A program made the translations under genes and the position numbers. Of a stretch of 64,000 nucleotides of DNA, positions 34,001 through 55,527 are shown one piece after another. Below the pieces are notes generated by a model. The model saw nothing but the letters and a program-made list of their open reading frames with translations. It made no database searches and was not told the origin of the DNA. How positions within the stretch are numbered: position 1 is the first letter of the stretch; each line of letters starts with the position of its first letter. Source of the DNA: Bdellovibrio sp. (GTDB lineage: Bacteria; Bdellovibrionota; Bdellovibrionia; Bdellovibrionales; Bdellovibrionaceae); contig JAKFBS010000004.1 of the NCBI GenBank assembly GCA_036677065.1, positions 608,001 to 672,000 on the forward strand, given 5' to 3'.

Positions 34001-37000
34001 TGGTTCGCAATACACGAAAGTCACTGTTGATGGTAAAGGCCGCGTAACAAGTGGAGCGCAGTTATCTGTAACAGATGTGACGACTGCTTTAGGTTACACT
34101 CCGGCAAGTGCTTCGGCATCAACGCAGTGGATAACCAGCGGTACAGCGATTAGTTACGTTGCCGGTAGTGTTGGTATTGGCACTGTTAATCCGGAAGGCC
34201 CGTTACATATTTTATCAAGTTCGCCAAACGCCATTATTTTAGAAAGATCGAATTCTAATAATTCACATATTCAATATAAAAATACCGCAGGTTCTGTTTA
34301 TGCGGGCTTAAACATGACAGGTTCTTTTGCTATCGGGCCAAATTTAAATTTATCATCAAGCCCTTTTCTAACTGTGACCAGTGGAACAGGTAATGTGGGG
34401 ATTGGCATTGCCGCACCCCAAGAGCAGCTGCATTTAAGTAGAGTTTTAAAATTTACGAATACCGTAGGAGTCAGTAACTTTCGTGCACCAACAGCCGATA
34501 GTTTCAGAATTTTTAACCACGACGATCAAAGCACTGGTAATGCCTACGGCACTGGTGATAATAACGCGATTATTTTTGAAAATGTTGACAGTAATAATCC
34601 GGCACCAGACGACAGTATGTATTTTGTAAATCATGGGTCGAGCGGACCGGTACATGCCCTGACCATCAAGGGAACTGGCAATATAGGTATTGGATTAATA
34701 AACCCAACTGCTAAATTGCATTTAACTTCTGGTTCAACTTCAGTTGCACCGGTAAGAATGACTGCGGGAAATTTGTTATCGTCTCCACAAGCGGGAGCGA
34801 TTGAGTATGATGGAACTTCTTTTTATGTAACTGATGGTGCAAATTCACGTAAAGCTATCGTTACTGATACGAATGGTTATTACGCTGTTAATACTCTGAC
34901 ATCTGCGGGCCACATGATTTTAGCTCCGACTGGTTCAGTTTTTGTTTCTTCAACCGCAGTTTCAACAAACTCAAACACTGGCGCCTTAGTTGTGAGTGGC
35001 GGTGTCGGCGTTGCCGGAAATATTAATGCTGCTGGAAACATTACAACAACTGCAAATATGCAAGCGGCGTCGATCACGGCAACAAGCGGAATTATTTCTC
35101 CGTATATTGCCGGTAGTGTGGCTTCGGGTGGTGCGATCACAATTGATTCAACAACAAATGCCGGTAAAGGAAATATTTATTTAAACCCTAACGGCGGCAA
35201 AGTGGGTATTGGTTATAATTCACCACTCGGAAAACTTCATATCGGCGGATCAATGTCTGGAGCTTATCGCTCTTGGATGGATAACGGTCTATTGATAGGA
35301 AAATCTGGCGACAGTGATGGTGGTTATTTCGGTCTAAAAGACGAAGGTTTAAATCGTCAAGACACCGTCATTGCCTGGGGCGATGATGCAACTGATGTTT
35401 TAAGATTCATTCATACATTAAGTGGTGGGGCCTCTGATGGTGCTGAAGCTATGCGAATTACGGCTGGCGGTAATGTCGGTATTGGAACATCTGCACCTGC
35501 ACAAAGATTATCGGTGAATGGTGATGTGAGTATTACCGGTGATTTAAGAATGACTGGTAATGATAGCTACATTTGGACCAACGGATCAGGTACTGGATAT
35601 ACAGGAATTTGGGATACAGCTAATTCTAGAGCGTTACTTTTTACTTCAGAAAATTCAGGCAACGTGGGTATTAGAACGACAGCTCCTGTCACAGAGTTAG
35701 ATGTCAGCGGAAGTGTTTTGGTTCGTGGACAAAATATTTTTATGAATCATGATGCTGGTACGAATGTTAATAATGATTATTTTAATTATGATGATAATGC
35801 AGTTTTAGGCGCTGGCGGGGTATTTTCGTTCTTTGCAGATTCTGCGCGTGGTTTAAGTTGGACAGGCGCGAACGGCGCTATTGCCGCTCGAGCTGGTTAC
35901 TTTGTGAATAATGTATCTATCGGAACATCAGCAACGACAAGAACACTTGAAGTGAACGGTTCTATTAACGCCGGTGGTATGGTTGCAGAGACTTTTACTT
36001 TCGGAATCGATGGCACTGTGAATGGAACGTGGGCTATTGGTTCTTTATCAAATAATGGAACTGTCGTGCATGCAACGTTTGATCTTCACGTGCATAACGG
36101 CAGTACTATTGATGCCTTGAAGTTTCAAGTAAGTCTTCCGACCTATTCAAATGGAACTTTCTATTCAGGCTGGCAAGAGCTTCCGGTCGCATTTGGAAGC
36201 TCTGCATGGAATGGTCAGAAAAACTATGTTGTTGATGTATTGCGTACGTCGGCCTCTTCAGGTAATCCGATTTTCTTTCGTGTCAGAAATAAAGGCGGGA
36301 ATGGCTCGGCTTCAAGTATGAAAGTGCGTATGACTTATAACAGTGATCAAACTTTTACCCGTATCACTCACCAAAATACTGTAGGTACTGCATTTAATGC
36401 AGGAACTGCAGCAGCAGGTGGACCGGTTGATGGTATGTATGGTGCTTTAGAGTATTCATTTCCTGTAGCTGTTGGCCAGGGTTGGAGACCGGCTGATCAT
36501 AATGGCCTATTTGTTAAAAACAGTGGTTATGTCGGTATCGGCACAAGCACTCCAAGCGAAATGTTAGAAGTCAGCGGCAGTGTGAAAGCTACAGCTTACT
36601 TATACACTTCTGATCGCAGATTAAAAAAAGATATTATCACTTTGCCAGATGCTTTAGCTAGCGTGCTAAAACTTCGTGGTGTGAATTTCGTCTGGAAAAA
36701 CAATAATGAAAAAACTGTGGGTTTTATCGCGCAAGAAGTTGAAGCGGTATATCCAGAACTTGTAAAAACTGATAAAGTATCGGGCTTTAAAGCTGTTCAG
36801 TACGGAAATATCGTAGCGATTTTAGTTGAAGCGATTAAACAAGAAAATAAAGAACGTTTAGAGGCGCAAAACCGTTGCGAAGCTCAAATTGCAAACGTGC
36901 AACGTTCAGTAGCCAGTGGCAGTGATAAATCGGATGCGCGTATCAATCAGCTTGAAAAAGAAAATCTAGAGCTTAAAAATCGCTTAGAAAAAATCGAGAA

Positions 37001-37025
37001 ATTCTTAAACGAAAAAGTAAAATGA
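31047..37025 (+). CDS. Fibre 1: secreted mosaic trimeric fibre adhesin with C-terminal peptidase S74 chaperone
   Basis: 1992 aa. Signal peptide ending TFA, conserved N-domain (TTYQAKIVKPDGYPLE), GNVGIGT and ALGYTPA repeats, tail-fibre repeat YTKVTVDGKGRVT, and S74 SDRRLKK (Ser codon at 36609) with GFIAQEV. Confidence 0.9.
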   Translation: MVNVRWQTKNLNLFVIVFVFMFMNTSPTFAGPNRTTYQAKIVKPDGYPLESSSVNFKFTILDPTGSCILYAETYSSVNMSSTGGLISFSLGSGVKTYPASATTFEQVFSNITPTLSCDAGGPPSYSPASSDARKIVMQFHDGAGWQTLPAMSINAVPYAMYASEASSLNGKTDADFVQLASVPTCLTTEALHYNGTSFSCVNTASVSAAAVVSALGYTPADAVSVTALSSSLSTTDSAVSAVSASVFSVAANVASVSSSVFAVSSTVSLLANTVSAITSSQWTSSGTTVFYNAGNVGIGTDNPITTLEVSGAITATNGAGTLNLRAGAVQDHTYMQFFARSANPASRTGYIGYPTAGTSQLNIYNETAAGAIGFGTNATSRMMITSAGNIGIGTTLPMTKLEVSGGVRISMEAATCTVSYAGTLRYNSGLVEYCNGASWSAFGVAGAGITLFNGSSSGTQTFVTGISGTNFDITSSNGVHTFSIPLAASSSVTAGLLSNADYTAFTNKVSATSASVISALGYAPASATGVATLTSNLNTVSSTVSSLTASTAASFSAITSSQWVTSGTAIYYNTGGVGIGTSNPSSGLTVNGQVAFQNGSGTGIGAVFNNAGSLNFQANSNSNGLQLGTSTANPISLYTNGSTKVTVTSGGYMGLGTSAPIYNLDIAGGSNAAAIGITGSGNSGHTSTLYLNSTAVSATSYVRQDSFGSYAAGTGSNGHGLNFLSGRPGYSNFTFRDSNENVGVAIVSDYTKVTSMPYAAHLLVGGNVGIGRIAPVTKLDVAGGVKISMEAATCAASYAGTLRYNSGSVEYCNGTSWAAFGVSTSGLTSLNGSSSQTQTFANGATGTQPAYVTTNGVHTLNIPLASAGSVTAGLLSNADYVSFSNKVNATSAAIISALGYTPANNAASGTYAVKSNNLSDLTSATVARSNLGLGSIALLNSVDLSGSQATGTLAAARLPAHTGDVQSSAGSAVLTLASVGSGVTSGSQYTKVTVDGKGRVTSGAQLSVTDVTTALGYTPASASASTQWITSGTAISYVAGSVGIGTVNPEGPLHILSSSPNAIILERSNSNNSHIQYKNTAGSVYAGLNMTGSFAIGPNLNLSSSPFLTVTSGTGNVGIGIAAPQEQLHLSRVLKFTNTVGVSNFRAPTADSFRIFNHDDQSTGNAYGTGDNNAIIFENVDSNNPAPDDSMYFVNHGSSGPVHALTIKGTGNIGIGLINPTAKLHLTSGSTSVAPVRMTAGNLLSSPQAGAIEYDGTSFYVTDGANSRKAIVTDTNGYYAVNTLTSAGHMILAPTGSVFVSSTAVSTNSNTGALVVSGGVGVAGNINAAGNITTTANMQAASITATSGIISPYIAGSVASGGAITIDSTTNAGKGNIYLNPNGGKVGIGYNSPLGKLHIGGSMSGAYRSWMDNGLLIGKSGDSDGGYFGLKDEGLNRQDTVIAWGDDATDVLRFIHTLSGGASDGAEAMRITAGGNVGIGTSAPAQRLSVNGDVSITGDLRMTGNDSYIWTNGSGTGYTGIWDTANSRALLFTSENSGNVGIRTTAPVTELDVSGSVLVRGQNIFMNHDAGTNVNNDYFNYDDNAVLGAGGVFSFFADSARGLSWTGANGAIAARAGYFVNNVSIGTSATTRTLEVNGSINAGGMVAETFTFGIDGTVNGTWAIGSLSNNGTVVHATFDLHVHNGSTIDALKFQVSLPTYSNGTFYSGWQELPVAFGSSAWNGQKNYVVDVLRTSASSGNPIFFRVRNKGGNGSASSMKVRMTYNSDQTFTRITHQNTVGTAFNAGTAAAGGPVDGMYGALEYSFPVAVGQGWRPADHNGLFVKNSGYVGIGTSTPSEMLEVSGSVKATAYLYTSDRRLKKDIITLPDALASVLKLRGVNFVWKNNNEKTVGFIAQEVEAVYPELVKTDKVSGFKAVQYGNIVAILVEAIKQENKERLEAQNRCEAQIANVQRSVASGSDKSDARINQLEKENLELKNRLEKIEKFLNEKVK

Positions 37026-38497
37026 AAAAGCTTTTAGTTTTACTTGTTTTTATGCCCATGCTGATCGGGATTAATAACCTGACCGATGGCTATCGGATTC
37101 CTGCCGCCGGTGGATCAATGCGCATCTATGCGAAAAATGGCGGCGCTCAGGGAGCTTGTTATACGGTTCAAAATAATCACGGAACAAATGACTTATTTGT
37201 CCCGACAAAGTCCACGACCGAGTGGGCATCGTTTATTACTAATGCACCAACCTTTGTTGCAAAAGCTTTATGTCAGCCAAAATCATGTAAAGAGATTATG
37301 ACTTTAATGGGGAATCCTGCTGACGGAGTTTACACCATTGATTCAGATGGCGCCGGAGCCGGTGCTTCCTATCAAACTTACTGTGATATGACGACAGACG
37401 GCGGCGGCTGGACAAGAATTTTTCGCCATCATGTGCAAGGCGGATATTTCGCAACGACATCTGATGCGATCAGTAAAAATACGAACGATGCCAATCACAA
37501 TCTGTATTCGGCATTAGATAAAATTCCTGATTTTATCAGTAATGGAAAATATCGCTTTCGTATGAATTGGCCAGGTTATTCAGAGAAAAATATTTGGATA
37601 CAGACAACGAATCCATTAGACGATGTGGATGTAGCGGGTGTTGTTCCGATTGCAGTGAATACCTTTACACAAACAAGATTACTTAATTGGGGTGGAATTG
37701 AACTGGGTAACGGGACACATGGCCCAACCAACGGAGATGCTTCATTAATTGATGGATCTATTGAACATGGCAATTGGTTTTTTGCCATTGGCAGTGATGC
37801 TCCATATTCTACTCCGCCGGGCATTCCGGCCGATACGCCGCTTCTTGCTAGTGGTGGGGTTTCTGAAACGGTGTTATGGATTAAAGAAGATGATGTCGTC
37901 GTGTCTTACAACTCATGTAAAGCGATTTTAGATGCGGGTGCGTCAACAGGTTCAGGAATTTACACAATTGATCCGGGAAGTCTTGGTTCACCAATTCCGG
38001 TTTACTGTGACATGACGAGCGATGGTGGCGGCTGGACACGAGCTTTTTATCATACCGCTTCGGGATCACTTTTTGTGAACAACGCAGAAGCGCTTTCAAG
38101 TAATCAGACAGCACCGCTGACCACAACAAAATATTCTATTTTAAATCGCCTGTCAGGATTTCTGCGTGCCGGAAAATTTGAATTAAAAATTGATTGGCCA
38201 TTGAGTCCGAATCCTACTATTAGAAATTGGTGGACACAAACCAGTGATTTTACTTCGCAACCAGTGGCAGGTTATGTCGGAGTTTCAATCGGCACATCAA
38301 CACAAGGCTGGGGCGGCTTAGAATACGGAACGCCCGGAACAACGCTTGCTGATGGTTCGGTGGGAACAGGTTCTTATTGGTATGCGATTGGCTTAAATGC
38401 ACTTTGGGGAGCAAACAATCCTGGGTTGCCATCGTCTGAAGAAGTTGCTGGGGCGCCAGACACGGGAGTACCCCGGGTCGAACTTTGGGTTAAGTAA
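37022..38497 (+). CDS. Secreted protein with two fibrinogen-like (YCDxxxxGGGW) domains, partner of fibre 1
   Basis: Two SCK...G(V/I)YTID...YCDMTxDGGGWTR units; ATGA overlap with the fibre 1 stop. Confidence 0.88.
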   Translation: MKKLLVLLVFMPMLIGINNLTDGYRIPAAGGSMRIYAKNGGAQGACYTVQNNHGTNDLFVPTKSTTEWASFITNAPTFVAKALCQPKSCKEIMTLMGNPADGVYTIDSDGAGAGASYQTYCDMTTDGGGWTRIFRHHVQGGYFATTSDAISKNTNDANHNLYSALDKIPDFISNGKYRFRMNWPGYSEKNIWIQTTNPLDDVDVAGVVPIAVNTFTQTRLLNWGGIELGNGTHGPTNGDASLIDGSIEHGNWFFAIGSDAPYSTPPGIPADTPLLASGGVSETVLWIKEDDVVVSYNSCKAILDAGASTGSGIYTIDPGSLGSPIPVYCDMTSDGGGWTRAFYHTASGSLFVNNAEALSSNQTAPLTTTKYSILNRLSGFLRAGKFELKIDWPLSPNPTIRNWWTQTSDFTSQPVAGYVGVSIGTSTQGWGGLEYGTPGTTLADGSVGTGSYWYAIGLNALWGANNPGLPSSEEVAGAPDTGVPRVELWVK

Positions 38498-38517
38498 TTT
38501 TAACAAGATTTAGATTC

Positions 38518-38534
38518 TGTTTCATGTTGAAACA
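38518..38534. promoter_or_regulatory. Palindromic operator upstream of fibre 2
   Basis: Perfect arms TGTTTCA-tgt-TGAAACA, starting 80 bp before the GTG. Confidence 0.75.
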
Positions 38535-38582
38535 ATCCACTAAACAAAAACCAAAATTAATCTTCATTTTAATGTCAAAAAT

Positions 38583-38590
38583 ACCGACAA
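38583..38590 (+). promoter_or_regulatory. sigma28-type -10 box, fibre 2
   Basis: ACCGACAA, 7 nt before the GTG. Confidence 0.65.
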
Positions 38591-38597
38591 GAATGCT

Positions 38598-41500
38598 GTG
38601 ATGGACGTTGCTGGAACCACTAAAAATTTGAATGTTTTTAGATTGTTAGTCGTTTTTATTTTTATAAACGCGTCGCTAGCTTTTGCCGGTCCAAATCGCA
38701 CAACCTATCAAGCCAAAATCATGAAGCCTGATGGTTATCCCTTAGAAGCTTCAACTGTAAATTTTAAATTTTCAATTTTAAGTCCGGCAGGCGATTGTAT
38801 TTTATATGCTGAAACTTATTCTTCTGTGAATATGTCTTCAACGGGTGGATTAATTTCTTTTGCTCTTGGTTCTGGAGTAAAAACTTATCCAGTATCGGCG
38901 ACGACTTTTGAACAAGTTTTTTCTAACATCACACCAAGTTTATCTTGTGATGTCGGCGGCCCAGGTAATTACGTGCCCCTGGCCAGCGATTCAAGAAAAG
39001 TTGTTATGCAGTTTCATGACGGTGCCGGATGGCAGACGCTTCCTGCAATGAGCATCAATGCCGTGCCATATGCGATGTATGCCAATGAATCTTTAAAATT
39101 AAATGGCAAAGCTGACACTGACTTCGTTCAGGTGGCTGCGATTCCGACATGTTTATCAACTGAAGCCCTTCAGTATAACGGAACCAGTTTTTTATGTGTA
39201 AGTACGACAACTGTTTCAGCAGCCGCTGTTGTTGCAGCTCTTGGTTATACACCGGCAACGGGTGCAAGTGTTACGGCACTTTCATCTTCATTATCAACAA
39301 CAGATGCAACTGTAGCTTCAGTTTCATCAGCGGTATTTTCTGTTTCTTCAACGGTATCAACTTTAGCAAGTTCTGTTGCGGCAAGTTTTACTTCGATTAC
39401 TTCTTCGCAGTGGTTAACTAGTGGCACGGCAATTTCGTATGATTCTGGAAATGTTGGCATCGGCACGACAGCACCAGTAACTAAATTAGAAGTTTCTGGC
39501 GGCGTGCGTATAAGTATGGAAGCCGCAACTTGTACTGTCAGTTATGCCGGAACTCTACGTTATAATTCTGGTTTAGTCGAATATTGTAATGGCGCTTCAT
39601 GGTCAGCGTTTGGCGTGGCCGGTGCAGGGATTACTTTATTTAATGGTTCGTCTTCTGGCACACAAACTTTTGTGACTGGAATTAGCGGAACAAATTTTAA
39701 TGTTACAACGAATAACGGAGTTCATTCTTTTAATATTCCGTTGGCAGCATCGGCTGCTGTGACGGCGGGTTTATTATCAAATGCAGATTATGTAACTTTT
39801 AATGCGAAAATGAATGCAACCAGTGCGGCGGTGATTTCAGCAATGGGTTACACGCCGGCAAATTCAAGCACGGTAGCAACACTTTCTTCAGTTTTAAATA
39901 CAGTTTCTTCGACGGTGACTAGTTTAACTTCAGATACTGCCGCAAGTTTTGCGGCGATCACTTCATCACAATGGGTAACTAGTGGTTCAACTATTAATTA
40001 CACTGCCGGCGCTGTAGGGATTGGAACTACGAATCCGGGTGCATTATTAGATTTAACTGCAGATCTTGGCAGTGGACCATCGCTAAATATATACAATACG
40101 AACACATCTGATGGTCGTTCGGTTATGCATTTTCGTAACGATAGAGTTTCAAGTCAAAGATACGAAGTGGGTATTGACCCAGGTGGTTCGACTACAAAAA
40201 ATTTCGCTGTTCGTGATTTGACAGCCTCGGGTTCACCAGTGCGCTTTGCGATTGCGCCCAATGGCAGAGTAGGTCTCGGCACAGCAAGCCCGCTGGCGCC
40301 GTTAGATGTTTCAGGAACAATTCGCAGTGCGATTACTGCTGATGGCAATTTTTTTACATTGCAAAGAACAGGAAATAGAATTCACTATGTGCAAGGCACA
40401 GGACAACTTTTACGATTAAATTCTGATAGTCCGACGACTTATGATTTTCAATTAGATGCGGCAAACGGAAATATTTTTATGGCCACAGGTTTTGGTAACG
40501 TGGGTATAGGAATCGCATCACCTAATGCAAGACTTCATTTAGCTTCGGGATCAATGACGGTAGCTCCGCTTAAAATTACCTCAGGTACACTATTGTCTGC
40601 AGCGCAAGCTGGTGCTGTTGAATATGATGGTTCTTATTACTACATCACTGATGGAGCAAATACCCGTCGCGCGATTGCAACAGTAGCAAATCCAGGAACC
40701 TACGATAACGCTTCAAATATTTCTTCTACAGGAAATATCACGATGACTCCAACGGGATCAGTGATTGTTTCAAGCACAACAGCTTCAACAAATTCTAGTA
40801 CTGGTGCTTTAGTTGTGAATGGTGGCTTAGGTGTAGCGGGCGCGATCAATGCCGCTGGCAACATTGCAACGACAGCAAATATCCAAGGAACATCGATCAC
40901 GGCAACCAGTGGAATGATCACTCCTTATATCTATGGATCGACGGCAGCGAGTGGAGTGTTAACTTTAGATTCAACAACGAATGCGGCTAAAGGCAATATA
41001 GTAATGAATCCATCCGGTGGCAATGTCGGCATTGGAACATCAGTTCCCACAACTAAATTAGCTGTAAATGGTGCAGCTGGAAGTGGACACGTATTTACTG
41101 TAACAAATACTTCAGCGTCAGCAGGCTATTCAGGTAGTTTTAATTTAGCCGCACCCAATTTAGCAAATGGAGAGACTTTATTTTTTAACATGGGTAAAGC
41201 AGCCTCAACAAATAATCGTGCAGCTGTTACCTATGTACATGCGGCAGACGGAAGTGCGAGCAACAGGATTTCTCTTGGATTTTTTGGGAACGACAATATA
41301 TTAAATACACTCGCAAGTGGAAACGTCGGTGTGGGAACAAGTGCTCCGACAACAAAATTATATGTAAGCGGAAATGGTTCTAATGCACAAATGACAATAG
41401 ATTATGGTGTAGGTGGAAAATTTGCTGAATTTAGAGCTGGAACTACTGGCTCTGCAATTGGTTACGACGCATCATCTGCTTTTAACATTGGACCTGTAAC

Positions 41501-44084
41501 AGGTCATGGGCAAGCCAGTTTAGATAGTGTTGCAATGACTTTTAATGCAGGAAACGTTGGTGTGGGAGTTACGGCACCAAGTGCAAGACTTCATTTAGCT
41601 TCGGGATCAACAACTGTAGCACCGCTTAAATTCACATCAGGAAGTTTATTAGCATCTCCTGCATCTGGTGCTGTTGAGTATGATGGTACTTATTACTACA
41701 TCACTGATGGAGCAAATACTCGTCGCGCGATTGCGACAGTAGCAAATCCAGGAACCTACGATAACGCTTCAAATATTTCTTCTACAGGAAATATCACGAT
41801 GACTCCAACGGGATCAGTGATTGTGTCTAGCACGACAGCTTCGACGAATTCACAAACCGGCGCACTCGTTGTAAAAGGTGGTCTTGGTGTTGCGGGTAAT
41901 ATTTATTCAAGCGGAACAATCGTAACCTCTTCGAATATCGAAGGTAATGGTATTAAAACTAAAGGAACAACAGCTTATTTAGAAATGCACGATACAAACA
42001 CTCTGTATTCAGCAAGCCCACAATCTGCACTAGTTTTCAGAGATAGCGGAAATTCACAATACAGTTTTATCGGGCCAAGCAATGGTTCGATGATCTGGAA
42101 CAGTTGGTTGCCTATCGAATTAGACACCACCGGTGGTGTTGATTTATATGTAAGTCTAAATGGTAAAGTGGGTATTGGAACATCGTCACCAACAAGTAAT
42201 TTAGATATTAGCCCTGTTGGTAGTATTGCAGATAATACATCAGCACTAAAAGTTGGCGGAACAGCTTCGGCTCCGATTGCAGGAAGTTACGGAAGTTCAA
42301 AAATTTCACTGAGCGCAAATTATATAGGTTACGGCGCTGGCCCGCGCGCGATTAATCTTTATCCATCTACGCAAGTTGACGGGCATGGTATTGGTTTATC
42401 AAATGGCTTAACAGAATTATACTCTAACGGAAATTTTGGTTTCTTTGTTAGACCAAATCGCGCTGATGTGAATGGAACATATGCTTCAACAGAAGTGGTC
42501 AGAATGACTTCGACGGGACGTATGGGTATCGGCACCAGCGCGCCAGCAACGCAATTACATATTAAAGGAACTGGTCCGTATATAGCTTTTGAAGACTCAG
42601 AAGATCCTAATGGTTCATACGGTACTATTACGCAGTTTCAAAACGGCAACATGTTCTACGATGCGGATTTTAATAATACGGCAACACCAGGTGGTCATGT
42701 TTTTAGAACAGACGGCGGCGCAAATACGATTATGACTATGACCAGTTCAGGTCATGTCGGCATTGGCACAACAGCACCAGAAGTTAATCTACATGTTAAC
42801 AATACGACAGCTCCGCATGCTTCGGGAACCGAAATACTTCGTTTAACTGCACCTCATCTAGGTGCAACTATAGGTAGCGGCGGAATTTTAAAATTCACAA
42901 ATAATGTGGCTACAGCAGATGCTGCCGCTATTAAAACTTATACTCACGGAGCGAATGACGTTTCATTAAAATTTATGACTGGATACGGGTCTGGAACTTT
43001 GCAAGACCGTATGACAATTGCCAATAATGGTAATGTGGGTATTGGTACGGCAACGCCAGCGCAAAAATTATCTGTCGTCGGTGATGTGTCTGTGACTGGT
43101 CAGGTCACCTCAAAAGATTTTTTTGAAAAATCAATTAACATTGCAGATGGCTGGGCTATCGGAGATTATGTTGAAATAGTTCAAGGCTGGCCAAATGGTG
43201 CCGGGGCTTCAAGTAATTGGGAAGTGCATGTGGGTGGTACGCGCGGTAATTGGACCGAAGGCACGACTTATCTAATCACAGGAACGCATGCTGTGGGCAA
43301 TGCATGGAGAGAAGCACCTCATAGTTCTGAAAGCGGCTATACTGGCGGTAGTAAATGTTTTACCGTTGATATAAATGGCAACGGAAATTCTCCGCAATTC
43401 AGAATCAGAGCCGTAAAAGCTAGTGTTAGTTGTGGTACGGCTGGACCTGTGTTGCCATTAAATTTCAGAATAAGATCACTTGGAAATAACACGACTTGGA
43501 CAAGTTTATCTGCGACCGGCACTGGCGCAACAGTAGTTGGTATGCAGCCTATGGGATTATCTTGGAATGTTTATACAGGAAATCCGCAAGGTAATGGCAA
43601 TTTGGCCATTCATGCAAATAGTGCCGGCAATGTCGGTATCGGAACAACTGCACCGAGTGAAAAGTTAGAAGTCAGCGGCAGTGTGAAAGCTACAGCTTAT
43701 TTATATACTTCGGATGAACGTCTGAAAAAAGAAATTATCACTTTACCTGATGCACTGACAAAAGCTTTGCAGCTTCGCGGTGTGAATTTCGTCTGGAGAA
43801 ATAACAACGAAAAAACTGTGGGCTTTATTGCCCAAGAAGTTGAAGCTGTTTATCCTGAGTTAGTAAAAACTGATAAAGTTTCTGGGTTTAAAGCCGTGCA
43901 ATACGGCAATATCGTAGCGATTTTAGTTGAGGCGTTAAAACAAGAACACGAAGAGCGCGTCAGATCAGTGGCCAACGTGGCCGAAAAATCTGAAGTTCGT
44001 ATGAATCAACTTGAAAAAGAAAATCAGGATCTTAAAGCGCGTCTTGAAAAACTAGAAAAATTCTTTAGCGAAAAGAAAAAATGA
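38598..44084 (+). CDS. Fibre 2: mosaic fibre adhesin with S74 chaperone
   Basis: 1828 aa with the same N-domain, an internal duplicated module and SDERLKK (Ser codon at 43710). Confidence 0.9.
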   Translation: MMDVAGTTKNLNVFRLLVVFIFINASLAFAGPNRTTYQAKIMKPDGYPLEASTVNFKFSILSPAGDCILYAETYSSVNMSSTGGLISFALGSGVKTYPVSATTFEQVFSNITPSLSCDVGGPGNYVPLASDSRKVVMQFHDGAGWQTLPAMSINAVPYAMYANESLKLNGKADTDFVQVAAIPTCLSTEALQYNGTSFLCVSTTTVSAAAVVAALGYTPATGASVTALSSSLSTTDATVASVSSAVFSVSSTVSTLASSVAASFTSITSSQWLTSGTAISYDSGNVGIGTTAPVTKLEVSGGVRISMEAATCTVSYAGTLRYNSGLVEYCNGASWSAFGVAGAGITLFNGSSSGTQTFVTGISGTNFNVTTNNGVHSFNIPLAASAAVTAGLLSNADYVTFNAKMNATSAAVISAMGYTPANSSTVATLSSVLNTVSSTVTSLTSDTAASFAAITSSQWVTSGSTINYTAGAVGIGTTNPGALLDLTADLGSGPSLNIYNTNTSDGRSVMHFRNDRVSSQRYEVGIDPGGSTTKNFAVRDLTASGSPVRFAIAPNGRVGLGTASPLAPLDVSGTIRSAITADGNFFTLQRTGNRIHYVQGTGQLLRLNSDSPTTYDFQLDAANGNIFMATGFGNVGIGIASPNARLHLASGSMTVAPLKITSGTLLSAAQAGAVEYDGSYYYITDGANTRRAIATVANPGTYDNASNISSTGNITMTPTGSVIVSSTTASTNSSTGALVVNGGLGVAGAINAAGNIATTANIQGTSITATSGMITPYIYGSTAASGVLTLDSTTNAAKGNIVMNPSGGNVGIGTSVPTTKLAVNGAAGSGHVFTVTNTSASAGYSGSFNLAAPNLANGETLFFNMGKAASTNNRAAVTYVHAADGSASNRISLGFFGNDNILNTLASGNVGVGTSAPTTKLYVSGNGSNAQMTIDYGVGGKFAEFRAGTTGSAIGYDASSAFNIGPVTGHGQASLDSVAMTFNAGNVGVGVTAPSARLHLASGSTTVAPLKFTSGSLLASPASGAVEYDGTYYYITDGANTRRAIATVANPGTYDNASNISSTGNITMTPTGSVIVSSTTASTNSQTGALVVKGGLGVAGNIYSSGTIVTSSNIEGNGIKTKGTTAYLEMHDTNTLYSASPQSALVFRDSGNSQYSFIGPSNGSMIWNSWLPIELDTTGGVDLYVSLNGKVGIGTSSPTSNLDISPVGSIADNTSALKVGGTASAPIAGSYGSSKISLSANYIGYGAGPRAINLYPSTQVDGHGIGLSNGLTELYSNGNFGFFVRPNRADVNGTYASTEVVRMTSTGRMGIGTSAPATQLHIKGTGPYIAFEDSEDPNGSYGTITQFQNGNMFYDADFNNTATPGGHVFRTDGGANTIMTMTSSGHVGIGTTAPEVNLHVNNTTAPHASGTEILRLTAPHLGATIGSGGILKFTNNVATADAAAIKTYTHGANDVSLKFMTGYGSGTLQDRMTIANNGNVGIGTATPAQKLSVVGDVSVTGQVTSKDFFEKSINIADGWAIGDYVEIVQGWPNGAGASSNWEVHVGGTRGNWTEGTTYLITGTHAVGNAWREAPHSSESGYTGGSKCFTVDINGNGNSPQFRIRAVKASVSCGTAGPVLPLNFRIRSLGNNTTWTSLSATGTGATVVGMQPMGLSWNVYTGNPQGNGNLAIHANSAGNVGIGTTAPSEKLEVSGSVKATAYLYTSDERLKKEIITLPDALTKALQLRGVNFVWRNNNEKTVGFIAQEVEAVYPELVKTDKVSGFKAVQYGNIVAILVEALKQEHEERVRSVANVAEKSEVRMNQLEKENQDLKARLEKLEKFFSEKKK
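40609..41824 (+). repeat. 160-bp direct repeat inside fibre 2 (40609-40768 and 41665-41824)
   Basis: 4 mismatches in 160 bp by manual alignment; in-frame offset of 1056 bp. Confidence 0.9.
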
Positions 44085-45541
44085 AAAAGCTTCTAGTTTT
44101 ACTTATCTTTTTGCCAATGCTGATCGGGATTAATAATCTGACCGATGGTTACCGCATTCCTGGCGCCGGTGGTTCATTGCGTATTTATGCAAAAAGCGGT
44201 GCTTCTGTAGGTGCCTGTTATGTTGTTCAGAATAATCATGCGACAAATGATTTATTTGTTCCGACAAAAACGCCGGCCGAGTGGCTATCTTTTATTACCA
44301 ATACGCCTGGCTTTGCTACAAAAACTTTATGCCAGCCGAAATCATGTTTAGAAATTAAGAATCTACTGACAAGTTCTACTGACGGAGTTTACACGATTGA
44401 TTCTGATGGTGTCGGGGCGGGTGTAAGTTACCAGACTTATTGTGATATGACTTTAGATGGTGGTGGATGGACGCGAATTTTTCGCCATCATGTGGCTGGC
44501 GGATATTTTTCTACCACTGCAGATGCGATTAGTAAAAATACCGGTGATGCCACAAATAATTTATATTCGGCACTTGATAAAATTCCAGATTTTATCAGCA
44601 ATGGTAAATACCGATTTCGTATGAACTGGCCCGGATTTTCGCAAAAAAATATTTGGTTGCAAAGTACGAATCCGCTCAGTGACGTCGTCACCGCAGGCGT
44701 TGTTCCGATTGCGGTAAACGCGTATTCTGATACCCGCATCCAAAATTGGGGAGGCCTAGAGCTTTCAAGCGGAACCCACGGCCCACCGATTGGATCATCT
44801 TTACTTGATGGTTCTGTGCAACATACTAACTGGCATTACGCGGTCGGAAGTATTGCAGCTTATTCTACTCCGCCGGGAATTCCCGCCGATACCAGTATTT
44901 TAACAGGTGGTGTTTCTGAAACGGTGTTGTGGATCAAAGAAGATGATGTTGTGACTTCGTACAATTCGTGTAAAGCGATCTTGGATGCAGGAGCTTCAAC
45001 TGGAAGTGGTCTTTACACGATTGATCCCGGAAATCTGGGATCACCGATTTCGGTCTTTTGTGACATGACAACAGATGGTGGCGGTTGGACAAGAGCTTTT
45101 TATCATACAGTTTCAGGCGCGTTGTTTGTAAATAACGCCGAAGCATTAAATAGTAATCAGAGTGCACCCCTCAATAAGATTAAATACTCAATCTTAAATC
45201 GTCTTTCTGGATTTTTACGAGCCGGAAAATTTGAATTAAAAATAAATTGGCCAGACAGCGGAAGCGCTGCGCGCAATTGGTGGACACAAACCAGCAACTT
45301 CACGTCGCAACCTGCGGCTGGTTATGTTGGTGTAGCCATTGATTCTACAAGTAATTATTGGGGTGGCTTAGAATTCGGAAGTGAAGGTACAACTTTAGCA
45401 GATGGTTCAGTTAATCATGGTAATTGGTTTTATTCTATTGGGGCACAAACCACATGGGGAACTCCTGATGGGCTTCCGGCTTCAGAGCAACTTTTTCCTG
45501 GCGGGGTGGGTGTGCCTAAAGTCGAACTTTGGATCAAGTAG
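44081..45541 (+). CDS. Secreted double fibrinogen-like domain protein, partner of fibre 2
   Basis: Full-length paralogue of 37022-38497; ATGA overlap with the fibre 2 stop. Confidence 0.88.
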   Translation: MKKLLVLLIFLPMLIGINNLTDGYRIPGAGGSLRIYAKSGASVGACYVVQNNHATNDLFVPTKTPAEWLSFITNTPGFATKTLCQPKSCLEIKNLLTSSTDGVYTIDSDGVGAGVSYQTYCDMTLDGGGWTRIFRHHVAGGYFSTTADAISKNTGDATNNLYSALDKIPDFISNGKYRFRMNWPGFSQKNIWLQSTNPLSDVVTAGVVPIAVNAYSDTRIQNWGGLELSSGTHGPPIGSSLLDGSVQHTNWHYAVGSIAAYSTPPGIPADTSILTGGVSETVLWIKEDDVVTSYNSCKAILDAGASTGSGLYTIDPGNLGSPISVFCDMTTDGGGWTRAFYHTVSGALFVNNAEALNSNQSAPLNKIKYSILNRLSGFLRAGKFELKINWPDSGSAARNWWTQTSNFTSQPAAGYVGVAIDSTSNYWGGLEFGSEGTTLADGSVNHGNWFYSIGAQTTWGTPDGLPASEQLFPGGVGVPKVELWIK

Positions 45542-45621: not shown

Positions 45622-48600
45622 GTGAAAAGTACACGTTGGCAGGATAATTTTCTGAACCATTTTGCGTTTTTATTTTTTGTGTTTACACTGCTAAACACAT
45701 TGAATGCATTTGCAGGTCCAACACGCACAACGTACCAAGCTAAAATTGTTAAACCCGATGGTTACCCGCTGGAAGCCGCAAGCGTAAATTTTAAATTCAC
45801 GATTTTGGATCCTTCAGGAAGCTGTATTCTTTTTGCTGAAACTTATAATTCAGTGAACATGTCTTCAACCGGTGGGTTAATTTCTTTTTCACTGGGTGCA
45901 GGTGTAAAAACTTTTCCGGTCAGTGGTACAACATTCGAACAAATTTTTTCTAACATTACGCCGAACATGGCTTGTGATACGGGCGGTGCACCTGCGGTTT
46001 ATACGCCGATGGCTAATGATGCCCGTAAGATCGTGATGCAGTTTCATGATGGGGGCGGCTGGCAAACATTGCCTGCGATGAATATCAATGCTGTGCCTTA
46101 TGCGATGTATGCCAATGATTCACAAAAATTTAATGGCATGGCTCCATCTGAATTTGTGCAAGTGTCGACAATTCCAACGTGCACAGCTTCAGAAGCTTTA
46201 CGCTACACAGGTTCAGCTTTTCAATGTGTTGCCGCTGGTGGATCAGGACCTGTCAGTTCAGGTTCTGTTATCACAGCACTTGGTTATACGCCGGCAGATA
46301 GTGCAACTGTATCGACAGTTTCTACATACGCATCGAATGTAAGTTCAACGGTGTTTTCAATTTCTTCGACGGTTTCGTCATTTCAATCTTCAGTGGCGGC
46401 AAGTTTTTCAGCCATTGTGAATTCACAGTGGATAACAAGTGGCACTGCTATTGGCTATGATGCGGGTCGAGTTGGTATTGGCACTTTAAATCCTGCGTAT
46501 AACTTACATGTCATGCAACCAGTGAGCGGTCCAACCAGCGTTATGATCGATGCTTTTTCTGGAACACCTGGAATTTATTTTCGTAAAGCTAACGGCACGG
46601 CAGCGGCTCCGCAGGCCGTGTCAAATGCCACAGCCCTTTTAGAAATTGCAGCAGTTGGCCACGGGCAAACGGCATACCTTGCAAGTTCAGCGGCAAAAAT
46701 GATTATGGCTGCCGAAGAAGATTGGACAGACGCAACAGGTGCAGCTTCGATTCGTTTTCACACGCGTGGTTCAAGTACAACCACAGCTTCATCAGAAAGA
46801 ATGCGTATCGATAAAAATGGTAACGTCGGTATTGGCACTGTTACACCAATGACTAAGTTAGATGTTTCAGGCGGTGTGCGTATCAGTATGGAAGTTGCAG
46901 CCTGTGCTGTAAGTTTTGCCGGTACTCTTCGTTATAATTCTGGTGTTGTTGAATATTGTAATGGATCAGCGTGGACTCAATTTGGAGTAAGTGGTGCAGG
47001 CATCACAGCGTTGAATGGATTAGTTTCTGGATCGCAAACTTTTGCGCTCGGAAATTCGGGAACGTTACCAAATATTTCTTCAACAGGTTCGGTTCATACT
47101 TTTAATTTTCCGTATGCGGCTTCAGCAGGGGTTACTTCAGGTTTAATTTCAAACACTGATTACGCAACTTTTAATAATAAACAATCAGCCACAAGTGCTG
47201 CGATGATTGTAACACTTGGGTATACTCCGGCAAATGCTGTGAGTGTAACAACTCTGTCTTCAACGCTAGCAACAATGCAAGCTTCTGTTGCCACCATCAC
47301 AAGTTCACAATGGGTAACCAGCGGGTCTGCGATTTATTACAATGCAGGTAATGTAGGTATCGGCACAAGTTCTCCGGCGTCTCGCTTAGATTTATCAGCT
47401 AATGCTGTTGTTGATGCCAACACTTTAACATTTAGTAATTTGACTCAAAGTACAAATGTCATTCTGCGCACAAAAGACTATATGAATAATTTAGGCTGGC
47501 AAATCGCAGCAGCCGGTGGTTCGCAAGAATTATTTCATATTCGTGATGGCGCAGGTAACCCAAGATTATTTATTAACACAGCTAACAACACAATGGGTGT
47601 GGGTGCTGCAAGTGCTACCGCAAGATTACATATTACTTCTGGTACAGCCGCTATTCCTGCCTTCAAATTTACTTCTGGCACATTAGTAACTACACCACAA
47701 TCAGGTTCGATGGAATTTGATGGGTTTAATTTTTATTTAACAGATACCTCAGGAATTCGTCGTGCGATTGCGACAGGTGCCAGTTCAAGCAGTATTGATA
47801 ATGCGTCGATAATTAATTCATCAGGCAATATCACGATGGTTCCGCAAACGGGATCAGTGATCGTGTCGAGCACAACGGCCAGCATAAATTCAGCAACGGG
47901 TGCGCTTATTGTAAATGGCGGAGTGGGTATAGCAGGGGATGCTAATATTGCCGGAACACTAACCGCAGGCCATGCGATTATGGGATTATCGACGGGAATG
48001 GTTGGCATCGGTGCTTCAACGCCGACGACAAAACTTGATGTTAGATCTGAAGGAGCGATCAAAGTCGCGCGCATTCAGTACAGTGGCTCTGGTTTTTCAA
48101 CTCAGCCTAATTTAGAAATGTTTCGCTCGCGCGGAACAATTGATTCGCCAACGGCAGTTTTAGCTAATGATGTATTAGGTTCTTGGTCTGCCATCGGTCA
48201 CAATGGTGTATCGTTTGGTGCAGGATCAACAGCTGGGATCTTAATTCGTGCTACCCAAAATTTTTCGGGTACAAGTGCTGGGTCATATATGACATTTAAT
48301 ACGACGGCCTCAGGTACGTCGACCCAAGTTGAAAGAATGCGTATTGATAATCTGGGTAATATGGGTTTAGGCACGACAGCTCCAGATGCTCGTTTAGATG
48401 TGGTTGGGGCAATTAAAATTACCGGATTTTCATCTGGAACTTTCATGTATGTAAATGATAATGCCAGTAGCGGTACGCCGTTAAATGACGGAGCCCGTTT
48501 CGTTTACGATGGTAACGCTTTTGGAGGTAACTATGATGCCATTGTTTTTGAAAAAACAGATGCAAACAATGTAGTTCCTGATGGCGGATTTTTATTTGCC

Positions 48601-50367
48601 AATCGTGGCTCAGATAATATTCGTCAGCCGGCGATGGCAATTCGCGGTACAGGAAATGTCGGTATTGGTACTATAGCTCCTGTTGCGGGATTACATATTT
48701 CAACAACGGGAACTTCAACTCGCGCTCTTCGTATCGTAGCTACAACTTCAGCTACAGGGGGGTATGCCGAAGCCCAATTTGCATCTGATGCACGCGAATA
48801 TCGTATCGGTGTGGGCAATTCGACTGAAGTCGCCCACAATGTTGCCGGAAAATATTATCTTTACGATGGAGCCTCAAATACCATGCGTTTAGTTGTTGAT
48901 CAGAATGGCAATATCGGTGCTGGTACAGCTGCGCCGATCACACGCCTTGATATTTCGCGCCCGACGACGTCAGGTTCACAAATGTCATTACGTAATAATG
49001 GTAACGGTGGTTTTTTAACAGTGCCTTCATCAAGTGATGGAGTCATCTTAACTACAGCTAAATATGATGGTGGTATGTGGATCACCAGTTCACCACAAGC
49101 GAGTGCGTTCACAGTCGGCGAAGGTACGATTCAAATGTTTACTAATACTGGCTTAACGCCAGGAGCAAGTTTTTCCTATGCTGAGCGCGTACGTGTAGAC
49201 AATCAGGGAAATTTTTTGATTGGTACAACTAATTCCACACACGGGCGTTTAGCCGTGGAATCAAGTGGTACGGCGTATTTATCGTTAAACACAACGAATG
49301 GTACGCACAAACGTTCGGGAGTTTATTTTAGATCAGGTGGCGTACCACAAATGGAAATCGGTGTTGATGCCGGTGTAAATGGTGCACGTGATTTTTATAT
49401 TTACGATAGCGTGTCTGGTGCTTCACGTTTACATGTTAATGCGAACGGCTATGTGGGTATTGGTACCGGTGCACCTAAATTACCATTAGATGTGATGGGA
49501 ATTATCGGTACAACGTGGGGAACAGCGTTTAATACATCTTTCAATGGTTCTTGGAATCAGACTACAACTGGTTACGCTGGTCTTTTACAGTTTGAACCCT
49601 CAACCGGTAAATTTTATTTCTGGAATACGCCGGCTACTGCTGCAGCTGGCGCTGCGAATCCATTTCCCGTGCAATCAATGACGATCGATAAAGATGGTAA
49701 AGTGGGTATTGGAACTGCCAGTCCTGGAGCAAAATTTCACGTCAATGGTGACGCTCGAATTAACAGTATTATGGGCGGAGAAAACAATGGTTCTGGTAAT
49801 TTTCATTTAGATGCCTGGGGCAGTGGAGCAGATCGTTCAGTGTATTTAAACTGGGCTAGCGGAACTGGAGGAGCCAAAGTCGGTAACGGAAGTTCTACGT
49901 GGGGGCCGATTGCGGCTTCGGCGTTTAACGTGTCATCAGATAGACGTCTGAAAGATAATATTAAACCAATTGAAAATCCGTTAGAGAAAATTTTAAAAAT
50001 TGATGCTGTTACTTTCACTTGGAAAGAAGCCTCTCGTCATAAAATGGAAGGCGAACGTATTGGTTTAATTGCCCAGAATGTTGAAAAAATATTTCCGCAA
50101 GCTGTTAAATTAGATCATAGTGAAAATGCATTGCCGGGTGGTACAAGATTGGTGAATTATCCAGACTTAGTTTCGCCAATCATCGCTGCGATTAAAGAAT
50201 TTTATTCTTTATGGGTTAACGATTCAAAAGATTTACATCGTGAAATTGCTTCGGTTAAACAAGAAAATGAAACGCTTAAATTGCAAAATATTGAAAAAGA
50301 AAAACAGCTTAATGATATTCGCGCCTACCTGTGTGCCAAGGATCCGCAGGCTCCGATCTGCCAATAA
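45622..50367 (+). CDS. Fibre 3: mosaic fibre adhesin with S74 chaperone
   Basis: 1581 aa; N-domain, SDRRLKD (Ser codon at 49936), GLIAQNV; ends YLCAKDPQAPICQ. Confidence 0.9.
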   Translation: MKSTRWQDNFLNHFAFLFFVFTLLNTLNAFAGPTRTTYQAKIVKPDGYPLEAASVNFKFTILDPSGSCILFAETYNSVNMSSTGGLISFSLGAGVKTFPVSGTTFEQIFSNITPNMACDTGGAPAVYTPMANDARKIVMQFHDGGGWQTLPAMNINAVPYAMYANDSQKFNGMAPSEFVQVSTIPTCTASEALRYTGSAFQCVAAGGSGPVSSGSVITALGYTPADSATVSTVSTYASNVSSTVFSISSTVSSFQSSVAASFSAIVNSQWITSGTAIGYDAGRVGIGTLNPAYNLHVMQPVSGPTSVMIDAFSGTPGIYFRKANGTAAAPQAVSNATALLEIAAVGHGQTAYLASSAAKMIMAAEEDWTDATGAASIRFHTRGSSTTTASSERMRIDKNGNVGIGTVTPMTKLDVSGGVRISMEVAACAVSFAGTLRYNSGVVEYCNGSAWTQFGVSGAGITALNGLVSGSQTFALGNSGTLPNISSTGSVHTFNFPYAASAGVTSGLISNTDYATFNNKQSATSAAMIVTLGYTPANAVSVTTLSSTLATMQASVATITSSQWVTSGSAIYYNAGNVGIGTSSPASRLDLSANAVVDANTLTFSNLTQSTNVILRTKDYMNNLGWQIAAAGGSQELFHIRDGAGNPRLFINTANNTMGVGAASATARLHITSGTAAIPAFKFTSGTLVTTPQSGSMEFDGFNFYLTDTSGIRRAIATGASSSSIDNASIINSSGNITMVPQTGSVIVSSTTASINSATGALIVNGGVGIAGDANIAGTLTAGHAIMGLSTGMVGIGASTPTTKLDVRSEGAIKVARIQYSGSGFSTQPNLEMFRSRGTIDSPTAVLANDVLGSWSAIGHNGVSFGAGSTAGILIRATQNFSGTSAGSYMTFNTTASGTSTQVERMRIDNLGNMGLGTTAPDARLDVVGAIKITGFSSGTFMYVNDNASSGTPLNDGARFVYDGNAFGGNYDAIVFEKTDANNVVPDGGFLFANRGSDNIRQPAMAIRGTGNVGIGTIAPVAGLHISTTGTSTRALRIVATTSATGGYAEAQFASDAREYRIGVGNSTEVAHNVAGKYYLYDGASNTMRLVVDQNGNIGAGTAAPITRLDISRPTTSGSQMSLRNNGNGGFLTVPSSSDGVILTTAKYDGGMWITSSPQASAFTVGEGTIQMFTNTGLTPGASFSYAERVRVDNQGNFLIGTTNSTHGRLAVESSGTAYLSLNTTNGTHKRSGVYFRSGGVPQMEIGVDAGVNGARDFYIYDSVSGASRLHVNANGYVGIGTGAPKLPLDVMGIIGTTWGTAFNTSFNGSWNQTTTGYAGLLQFEPSTGKFYFWNTPATAAAGAANPFPVQSMTIDKDGKVGIGTASPGAKFHVNGDARINSIMGGENNGSGNFHLDAWGSGADRSVYLNWASGTGGAKVGNGSSTWGPIAASAFNVSSDRRLKDNIKPIENPLEKILKIDAVTFTWKEASRHKMEGERIGLIAQNVEKIFPQAVKLDHSENALPGGTRLVNYPDLVSPIIAAIKEFYSLWVNDSKDLHREIASVKQENETLKLQNIEKEKQLNDIRAYLCAKDPQAPICQ

Positions 50368-50389
50368 CCTGCGAAACTAGACCAGTTAA

Positions 50390-50428
50390 CGATTCGCTTT
50401 GAGACAAAACCTGTTTCAAATTGAGTCA
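50390..50428. promoter_or_regulatory. Two degenerate operator copies upstream of fibre 4
   Basis: CGATTCG-ctt-TGAGACA (50390-50406) and TGTTTCA-aat-TGAGTCA (50412-50428). Confidence 0.6.
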
Positions 50429-50445
50429 TTCCCTGTATCTAAAAT

Positions 50446-50472
50446 TAAAAACAAATTCAATTATTCCGATAA
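50446..50472 (+). promoter_or_regulatory. sigma28-type promoter, fibre 4
   Basis: TAAA-N15-TCCGATAA with canonical spacing, 7 nt before the GTG at 50480. Confidence 0.75.
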
Positions 50473-50479
50473 GTTAAGA

Positions 50480-55465: not shown

Positions 55466-55493
55466 AAATCATATTATATTTGCTCTAATAACT

Positions 55494-55520
55494 TAATCAA
55501 AGTGCTATAAATTCCGATAG
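55494..55520 (+). promoter_or_regulatory. sigma28-type promoter, fibre 5
   Basis: TAAT-N15-TCCGATAG, 7 nt before the GTG. Confidence 0.65.
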
Positions 55521-55527
55521 GTTAGCT

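Follow-up and report, generated by a model that had tools for sequence, protein, structure and literature searches.

The closest described counterpart of the system discussed here is the fiber of T2/S16-type phages, in which the trimeric fiber protein gp37 loses an S74-type chaperone by cleavage behind a short conserved strand, while gp38 is encoded by a separate, modular downstream gene whose front domain is constant and whose head varies. According to the accessible part of PMC7917993, gp38 docks on the five residues that immediately precede the cut, and the sequence upstream of them can be swapped. In Bdellovibrio, the accessible part of Caulton et al. 2024 (PMC10769870) describes the MAT fibers as single-gene homotrimers, whose S74 tips bind via a side cleft and whose non-S74 (NS74) tips bind with fused heads. 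A separately encoded cap does not appear in that part of the paper, and the accessible part of its supplement mentions neither fibrinogen, gp38, Bd2581, or Bd2580 nor an operon. We analyzed a 64,000-nt stretch of DNA, referred to here as the window, from Bdellovibrio sp. (GCA_036677065.1, contig JAKFBS010000004.1, positions 608,001 to 672,000, forward strand), which is part of a MAT fiber gene array. Two of its S74-type fibers, F1 and F2, are each followed by the gene of a secreted partner (P1 and P2), whose front domain, termed here the adapter, recurs behind one type of fiber tip in bacteria and archaea. This two-gene module is real and widespread, with strong genomic support; that the partner docks on the fiber is what we infer.

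The fibers F1 to F5 of the window belong to the S74 subgroup of MATs as presented in the accessible part of PMC10769870, with a MAT N-domain, capping-loop repeats, and an S74 domain carrying SDxxxK. PF13884 scores above its cutoff at the C terminus of all five; NF053851, the MAT N-domain that follows the signal peptide, matches F1 with an E value of 6e-48, and F2 is 67% identical to F1 across the first 330 aa. As the initial annotation had it, only F1 and F2 carry a translationally coupled, ATGA-overlapping (−4 nt) gene for a secreted partner with two fibrinogen-like domains, and signal-peptide-like starts are found in both fiber and partner; in F3 to F5, which end in AFNVS, GWTHV, and GVACS, the next gene is in each case another fiber. 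The predicted mature C terminus LEVSGSVKATAYLYT, followed by an SDxRLK motif, is indeed common to F1 and F2 only among the five, and the identical run is exactly 36 bp long. The divergence claimed for the neighboring distal domains was likewise found (24% identity over the ~200 aa upstream of the tips, 80% over the last 30 aa), and the conserved, ~65-aa non-fibrinogen domain at the front of both partners was borne out by a profile. In the whole host genome, a LEVSGSVKATAYLYT-type tip is present in 2 of 16 S74 fibers, and the adapter domain is encoded by exactly two genes (77.6 and 68.1 bits, the next profile score being 10.8 bits).

The F1/P1 and F2/P2 units share, at 74% identity, a block of 1,836 nt that takes in the tip, the S74 domain, and the whole partner. 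The 36-bp run is the longest in this block, but its length exceeds chance only modestly (P about 0.016, 5,000 codon-block shuffles). Because it sits in the shared 1.8-kb block, the two units count as one duplication and a single observation: one tip-S74-partner cassette has been duplicated or swapped behind differing distal domains.

Set beside T2/S16, the locus shares an S74-type chaperone cleaved off a trimeric fiber (both cleavage and trimer being assumed here by analogy with Bd3182), a short conserved strand preceding the cleavage site, and a separate, modular downstream gene in which a constant front domain is joined to a variable head. The S16 gp37 structure (6F45) is the best PDB sequence match of the F1 tip plus S74 (E value of 1.3e-6), and three partner relatives (P0021, P0061, and P0198) bear the Pfam GP38 head. 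There are also differences. The present system is cellular, with signal peptides; its tips read A-x-x-[FY]-x-Y-[TS], compared with LNVS and VYIR in the accessible part of PMC7917993; the adapter, predicted to be β-rich with one helix, has no sequence match with gp38; the heads are fibrinogen-like in P1 and P2 and of many folds elsewhere, in contrast to the polyglycine head of gp38; and the partner genes may be tandem, scattered, or fused. The gp37/gp38 logic invoked by the initial annotation stands for the cleavable S74 fiber with an adhesin-like gene directly downstream, but not for a sequence relation between the adapter and the gp38 attachment domain. With docking presumed, the module works like gp37/gp38 without being a member of that system, since its adapter is unrelated by sequence, its tip is another one, and its context is cellular. 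It is apparently undescribed: no description of the tip/adapter system was found in the open literature searched, including the accessible parts of PMC13689555, PMC12750041, PMC13147790, and bioRxiv 10.1101/2025.05.13.653841.

The association that the initial annotation foresaw, of adapter genes lying downstream of S74 fibers with this tip, holds clearly and across distant lineages. In a sample of 401 Bdellovibrionota genomes, the adapter profile matched 56 genomes at 88 places, giving 87 distinct genes once their surroundings were fetched: 42 immediately follow an S74 gene, 7 are second in tandem behind such a fiber, 37 are elsewhere, and 1 has no room. All 42 upstream S74 fibers share the tip type A-x-x-[FY]-x-Y-[TS], with SD behind the cut, or a one-residue variant of it (F or Y at position −4 in 41, Y at −2 in 39, and T or S at −1 in all); about a tenth of S74 fibers have the motif tip. 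Five relatives picked for carrying the adapter have the tip in 6 of 65 S74 genes and an adapter gene behind those 6 only, and 30 loci were read directly. While the pairing stands, its restriction to fibrinogen heads, MAT fibers, and bacterial predators does not, and some 40% of partner genes are not beside a fiber.

Approached from the tip, a DNA pattern gave at least 117 GTDB matches, 80 of them with flanks. Among the matches listed, and with genetic code table 25 used where TGA is read through, 78 motif tips were scored: an adapter is directly downstream of 46, nearby for 4, and neither for 24, and there is no room for 4. When grouped by record title under table 11 alone, the directly linked tips are 18 of 32 in Bdellovibrionota, 19 of 26 in Patescibacteria, 2 of 4 in archaea, and 3 of 16 in others. 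The GTDB and phylum counts are not independent, as some loci are common to both. Thirty-one genomes in this set lack an adjacent adapter gene or room for one, and 15 of them have an adapter elsewhere. Metagenomes yielded 122 tip matches, 80 with flanks, from which 22 were set aside (9 not S74, 8 without room, 4 duplicates, and 1 without a frame); the adapter follows the tip at 35 of the 58 scorable loci, weakly at 1, and not at 22. In five candidate phyla radiation (CPR) or archaeal genomes, an adapter stands behind 6 of 6 motif tips versus 0 of 3 other tips.

Tip and adapter also keep company at the level of whole genomes. The tip pattern matched 61 of the 401 genomes, 13 of which were dropped (out of frame, without Ser, or without S74; 5 were checked and the others judged by eye), so that both elements occur in 45, the tip only in 3, the adapter only in 11, and neither in 342. 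Two of the three tip-only genomes have a weak adapter match right behind the tip, and among the 11 adapter-only genomes, a variant tip is adjacent in 4 and elsewhere in the genome in 4 more. In the family of the host, both are present in 22 of 54 genomes and one alone in none, although both are patchily distributed within genera. The tip-then-partner adjacency is missing from nine concordant genomes; in G188, G298, G184, and G271, the genes are far apart. A random draw of 200 Patescibacteria genomes gave, besides its center, one new carrier, with an adapter right behind an AASFIYS tip; the system is rare or sporadic in Patescibacteria and sporadic in archaea.

The reading that we favor, and consider fairly probable on this sequence evidence, is that the adapter domain would dock exchangeable heads on the cleaved tip, yielding a two-component adhesive fiber in the manner of gp37/gp38. 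In line with established S74 biology, the fiber would trimerize and its S74 domain would cleave itself off before the catalytic Ser, exposing three ...AYLYT ends; in Bd3182, according to the accessible part of PMC10769870, the cut precedes the catalytic Ser, with A781 as the mature end and S782 as the catalytic residue. The adapter, with its FVPT..EW..F surface and probable disulfide, might then bind the exposed aromatic end and present its head at the distal end of the fiber, like gp38 on T2/S16 gp37, and the same tip could be loaded in trans with partners encoded elsewhere in the genome.

Conservation of the tip is confined to the last 13 to 15 residues before the cut: the A at −7 and the Y at −2 each reach 96% in 72 partnered tips, whereas no position exceeds 39% in 38 others, a comparison that is partly motif-selected. 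Upstream of the motif tip are MAT β-helices, collagen repeats, or prepilin-like starts. That the strongest conservation lies in the future mature end, and that motif tips occur on several S74 branches, speaks against a functional pairing with its contact elsewhere or transient, in which the adapter would bind the released or uncleaved S74 domain, or the fiber would serve as an escort during export, after which the head would act alone at the cell surface. This explanation draws on the fact that the motif-tip S74 domains are interrelated, so that an S74 surface could be the true partner, and on a fusion that ties the adapter to the S74 end, found in Azospirillum oryzae, where one open reading frame (ORF) runs from a pilin-like start and fiber through tip, S74, an internal signal-like segment, and adapter domain to TSP1 repeats. 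We regard it as unlikely.

Several observations weigh against docking on the tip. No fiber or partner lies immediately upstream of 37 of the 87 adapter genes, and the adapter gene is not directly behind 24 of the 78 GTDB tips (among the matches listed) and 22 of the 58 metagenome tips. Sixteen of the 31 genomes without adjacency in that GTDB set have no adapter match at all; many of them are small, partial metagenome-assembled genomes, and in a few the tip gene is not S74. Genome G390 has the tip without the adapter domain, and G048, G294, and G375 have the adapter domain and no convincing tip. Because of kinship among the genomes and overlap among the sets, the counts overstate independence. 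Tip and adapter residues show no covariation in 69 pairs (the top z of 3.9 is reached by 33.5% of shuffles), and the motif-tip S74 domains cluster, with 17 label changes versus 57.6 in shuffles on a poorly resolved tree; because of this clustering, shared descent of the cassette explains part of the linkage. The orphan genes, the lacking covariation, and the origin of both window units from one duplicated block would suit hitchhiking, with tip, S74, and next gene swapped as a block and the adapter being a general secretion or anchoring module that makes no fiber contact. However, the adapter stays while the heads change, the linkage spans bacteria and archaea, and both elements are kept in genomes where they are unlinked. 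Moreover, 78 other S74 genes are present in 27 of 28 double-negative genomes, which were chosen within the two richest families (these genomes have fewer fibers than the positives, a confounder), and the sole new carrier among the 200 random CPR genomes has its adapter right behind the motif tip. We consider hitchhiking improbable and retain docking on the cleaved tip as the preferred reading.

Judged by its sequences, the adapter domain is a large secreted family so far without a name. A profile search (E value of ≤0.001) collected 2,165 clusters at 50% identity, and neither P1 residues 17 to 86, compared with Pfam, PHROG, NCBIfam, and PDB, nor a 23-member alignment, compared with Pfam, PHROG, and PDB, gave a sequence match. 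The domain begins at most 45 residues from the start in 147 of 149 new top profile matches, and a crude test found a hydrophobic leader stretch in 135 of the 141 top matches having enough leader. The adapter model (pLDDT of 80.5, pTM of 0.65) comprises four strands, one helix carrying the EW..F motif, and a final strand, and fold searches with it returned no clear match. Besides the conserved FVPT..EW..F, the domain has two conserved Cys residues, which probably form a disulfide. A genome may have multiple adapter genes: G298 has 4 with 2 tips, G310 has 3 with 1 tip, and G432 has up to 8 matches.

What follows the adapter is highly variable. A Pfam match was obtained there in 43 of the 149 top matches and in none of the other 106: Fibrinogen_C in 11, LamG in 8, Gly_rich_2 in 4, Lcl_C in 3, and GP38 in 2, along with Fib_succ_major, TSP1, Kelch, fn3, CBM96, endostatin, β-helix, and others. 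The claim that the heads are exchangeable is thus upheld, the same adapter domain preceding many different adhesin-like heads. In a whole-protein model of P1 (pLDDT of 89), both heads have the fold of fibrinogen-related proteins such as ficolin, tachylectin-5A, intelectin, tenascin, and angiopoietin (Foldseek E value of about 1e-7, TM of about 0.6), with identities of 13 to 20%, and sequence matches span only the first 50 to 100 aa of each head. They carry the motif of NF040941 (“fibrinogen-like YCDxxxxGGGW domain-containing protein”), an annotation that overlooks the N-terminal adapter. Since they match the protein-binding tenascins, MFAP4, tachylectin, and ficolins alike, that is, lectins and non-lectins equally, the glycan binding attributed to them by the initial annotation is possible but not established.

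T4 gp38 and lambda Tfa are assembly or stabilizing caps. The partner could similarly be a cap sealing the β-helix at its hydrophobic end, prey being bound by the variable distal domain of the fiber. The F1 and F2 distal domains differ while their partners are nearly identical, and some partners, of 94 aa (G355) and 106 aa (L300), barely exceed the adapter domain. Most partners, however, bear large, varied heads of the adhesin type (several fibrinogen domains, GP38), which a plain cap would not need, and in our estimation a purely structural role has little probability.

Named Bdellovibrio bacteriovorus strains carry the tip fiber and one or more partners. At a locus of this species with a fiber and two partners, one contig of 6.9 to 7.1 kb spans all three genes in 3 of 4 RNA runs, which fits an operon and is no proof of a single transcript. 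The partner P0025 is CAE80376.1, whose cluster includes AHZ85080.1; this number adjoins that of AHZ85081.1, the bd2582 counterpart according to the accessible part of the PMC10769870 supplement. Bd2582 is presumably the capped fiber of the model strain.

Table 1. Fiber and partner features in the window
Feature	Position	Strand	Remarks
F1, S74-type MAT fiber, 1992 aa	31047..37025	+	PF13884 at aa 1855-1907; NF053851 at aa 20-179
F1 predicted mature tip LEVSGSVKATAYLYT, stops before catalytic Ser1855 at 36609	36564..36608	+	Cleavage position by analogy with Bd3182
36-bp run, same as 43664-43699; opens the 1.8-kb duplicated cassette	36563..36598	+	
F1 S74 intramolecular chaperone/protease and coiled coil	36609..37025	+	Top PDB match 6F45 (S16 gp37)
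P1, partner of F1, 491 aa: signal peptide, adapter domain, two fibrinogen-like heads	37022..38497	+	ATGA overlap with F1
P1 adapter domain, aa 17-86; conserved C, N, FVPT, EW, F, P, C	37070..37279	+	
P1 fibrinogen-related domains, two; second from about 37910	37280..38494	+	
F2, S74-type MAT fiber, 1828 aa	38598..44084	+	PF13884
F2 predicted mature tip, upstream of Ser1705 at 43710	43665..43709	+	
P2, partner of F2, 486 aa, 74% identical to P1	44081..45541	+	ATGA overlap with F2
P2 adapter domain	44129..44338	+	
F3-F5, S74 fibers with other tips, partner gene absent (internal controls)	45622..60324	+	

Elsewhere in the window, the F3 tip (49891-49935), AFNVS before SD, resembles the gp38-binding end of S16 gp37, LNVS before SD in the accessible part of the source, and no partner gene lies behind F3; a sixth fiber of the array, at 60449-63154, is a non-S74 MAT of 901 aa without a Pfam match. 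In other genomes, the fused Azospirillum oryzae A2P gene (L161:1373-3670 / L360:5062-7359) is a single 765-aa ORF followed by a DsbA-like gene. A fiber with a prepilin-type N-terminal methylation motif, motif tip, and S74 (L364:1607-3049, minus strand) overlaps a divergent adapter gene, and L408 has similar prepilin-like S74 genes. Collagen (Gly-X-Y) fibers ending in motif tip and S74 occur at L362, L368, and L369, and a 109-aa ORF (stop to stop; L370:3765-4094, plus strand) is nearly tip and S74 alone, perhaps a remnant. At seven CPR-like or archaeal loci (L183, L229, L231, L412, L414, L450, and L490), a gene of 180 to 260 aa with one N-terminal hydrophobic segment comes after the tip gene; in the first three, it sits between the tip and adapter genes and has no Pfam match. 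On viral contigs (L271, L272, L275, and L276), phage S74 fibers with the motif tip precede a gene of 164 to 205 aa that is faintly adapter-like, and a thioredoxin-like gene, judged by eye, comes next in L271 and L272.

S74 tips ending in FIST are followed at 4 of 8 loci (L337, L374, L403, and L406), 3 of which are seeds, by another secreted family, which begins with C-x-x-P...YCNG-x-x-W and lies behind no motif tip; the two may form a second tip/partner pair. In the host genome, a gene of this family (1386 aa, −17 overlap) follows a TITDV fiber (G000:C2:798214-803706, minus strand), and none follows two other TITDV tips. Two non-S74 MATs of the same genome (G000:C8:148415-150865 and C4:100941-104234, both plus strand) have large, secreted-looking ORFs close behind them (−4 and +10 nt).

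How Bdellovibrio and other contact-dependent microbes recognize their prey or host is a standing question. After loss of the chaperone, no head is obvious in S74-type MATs, and a separate cap would supply one. The cap model would also give a role to an unnamed family of more than 2,000 clusters, and the presence of the system in B. bacteriovorus opens it to existing genetics and to the structural methods used for MATs. More tentatively, we see some chance that predators and episymbionts share a plug-and-socket code, in which the 13-residue tip exposed by S74 would be a socket for any shaft, and thousands of secreted adapters, frequently several to a genome and encoded in trans, would supply interchangeable heads, including gp38-type ones. 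If so, a second, orthogonal pair of FIST tips and a different secreted family would make this code general, and small cap genes, overlooked when MATs are counted, would determine the range of prey or hosts.

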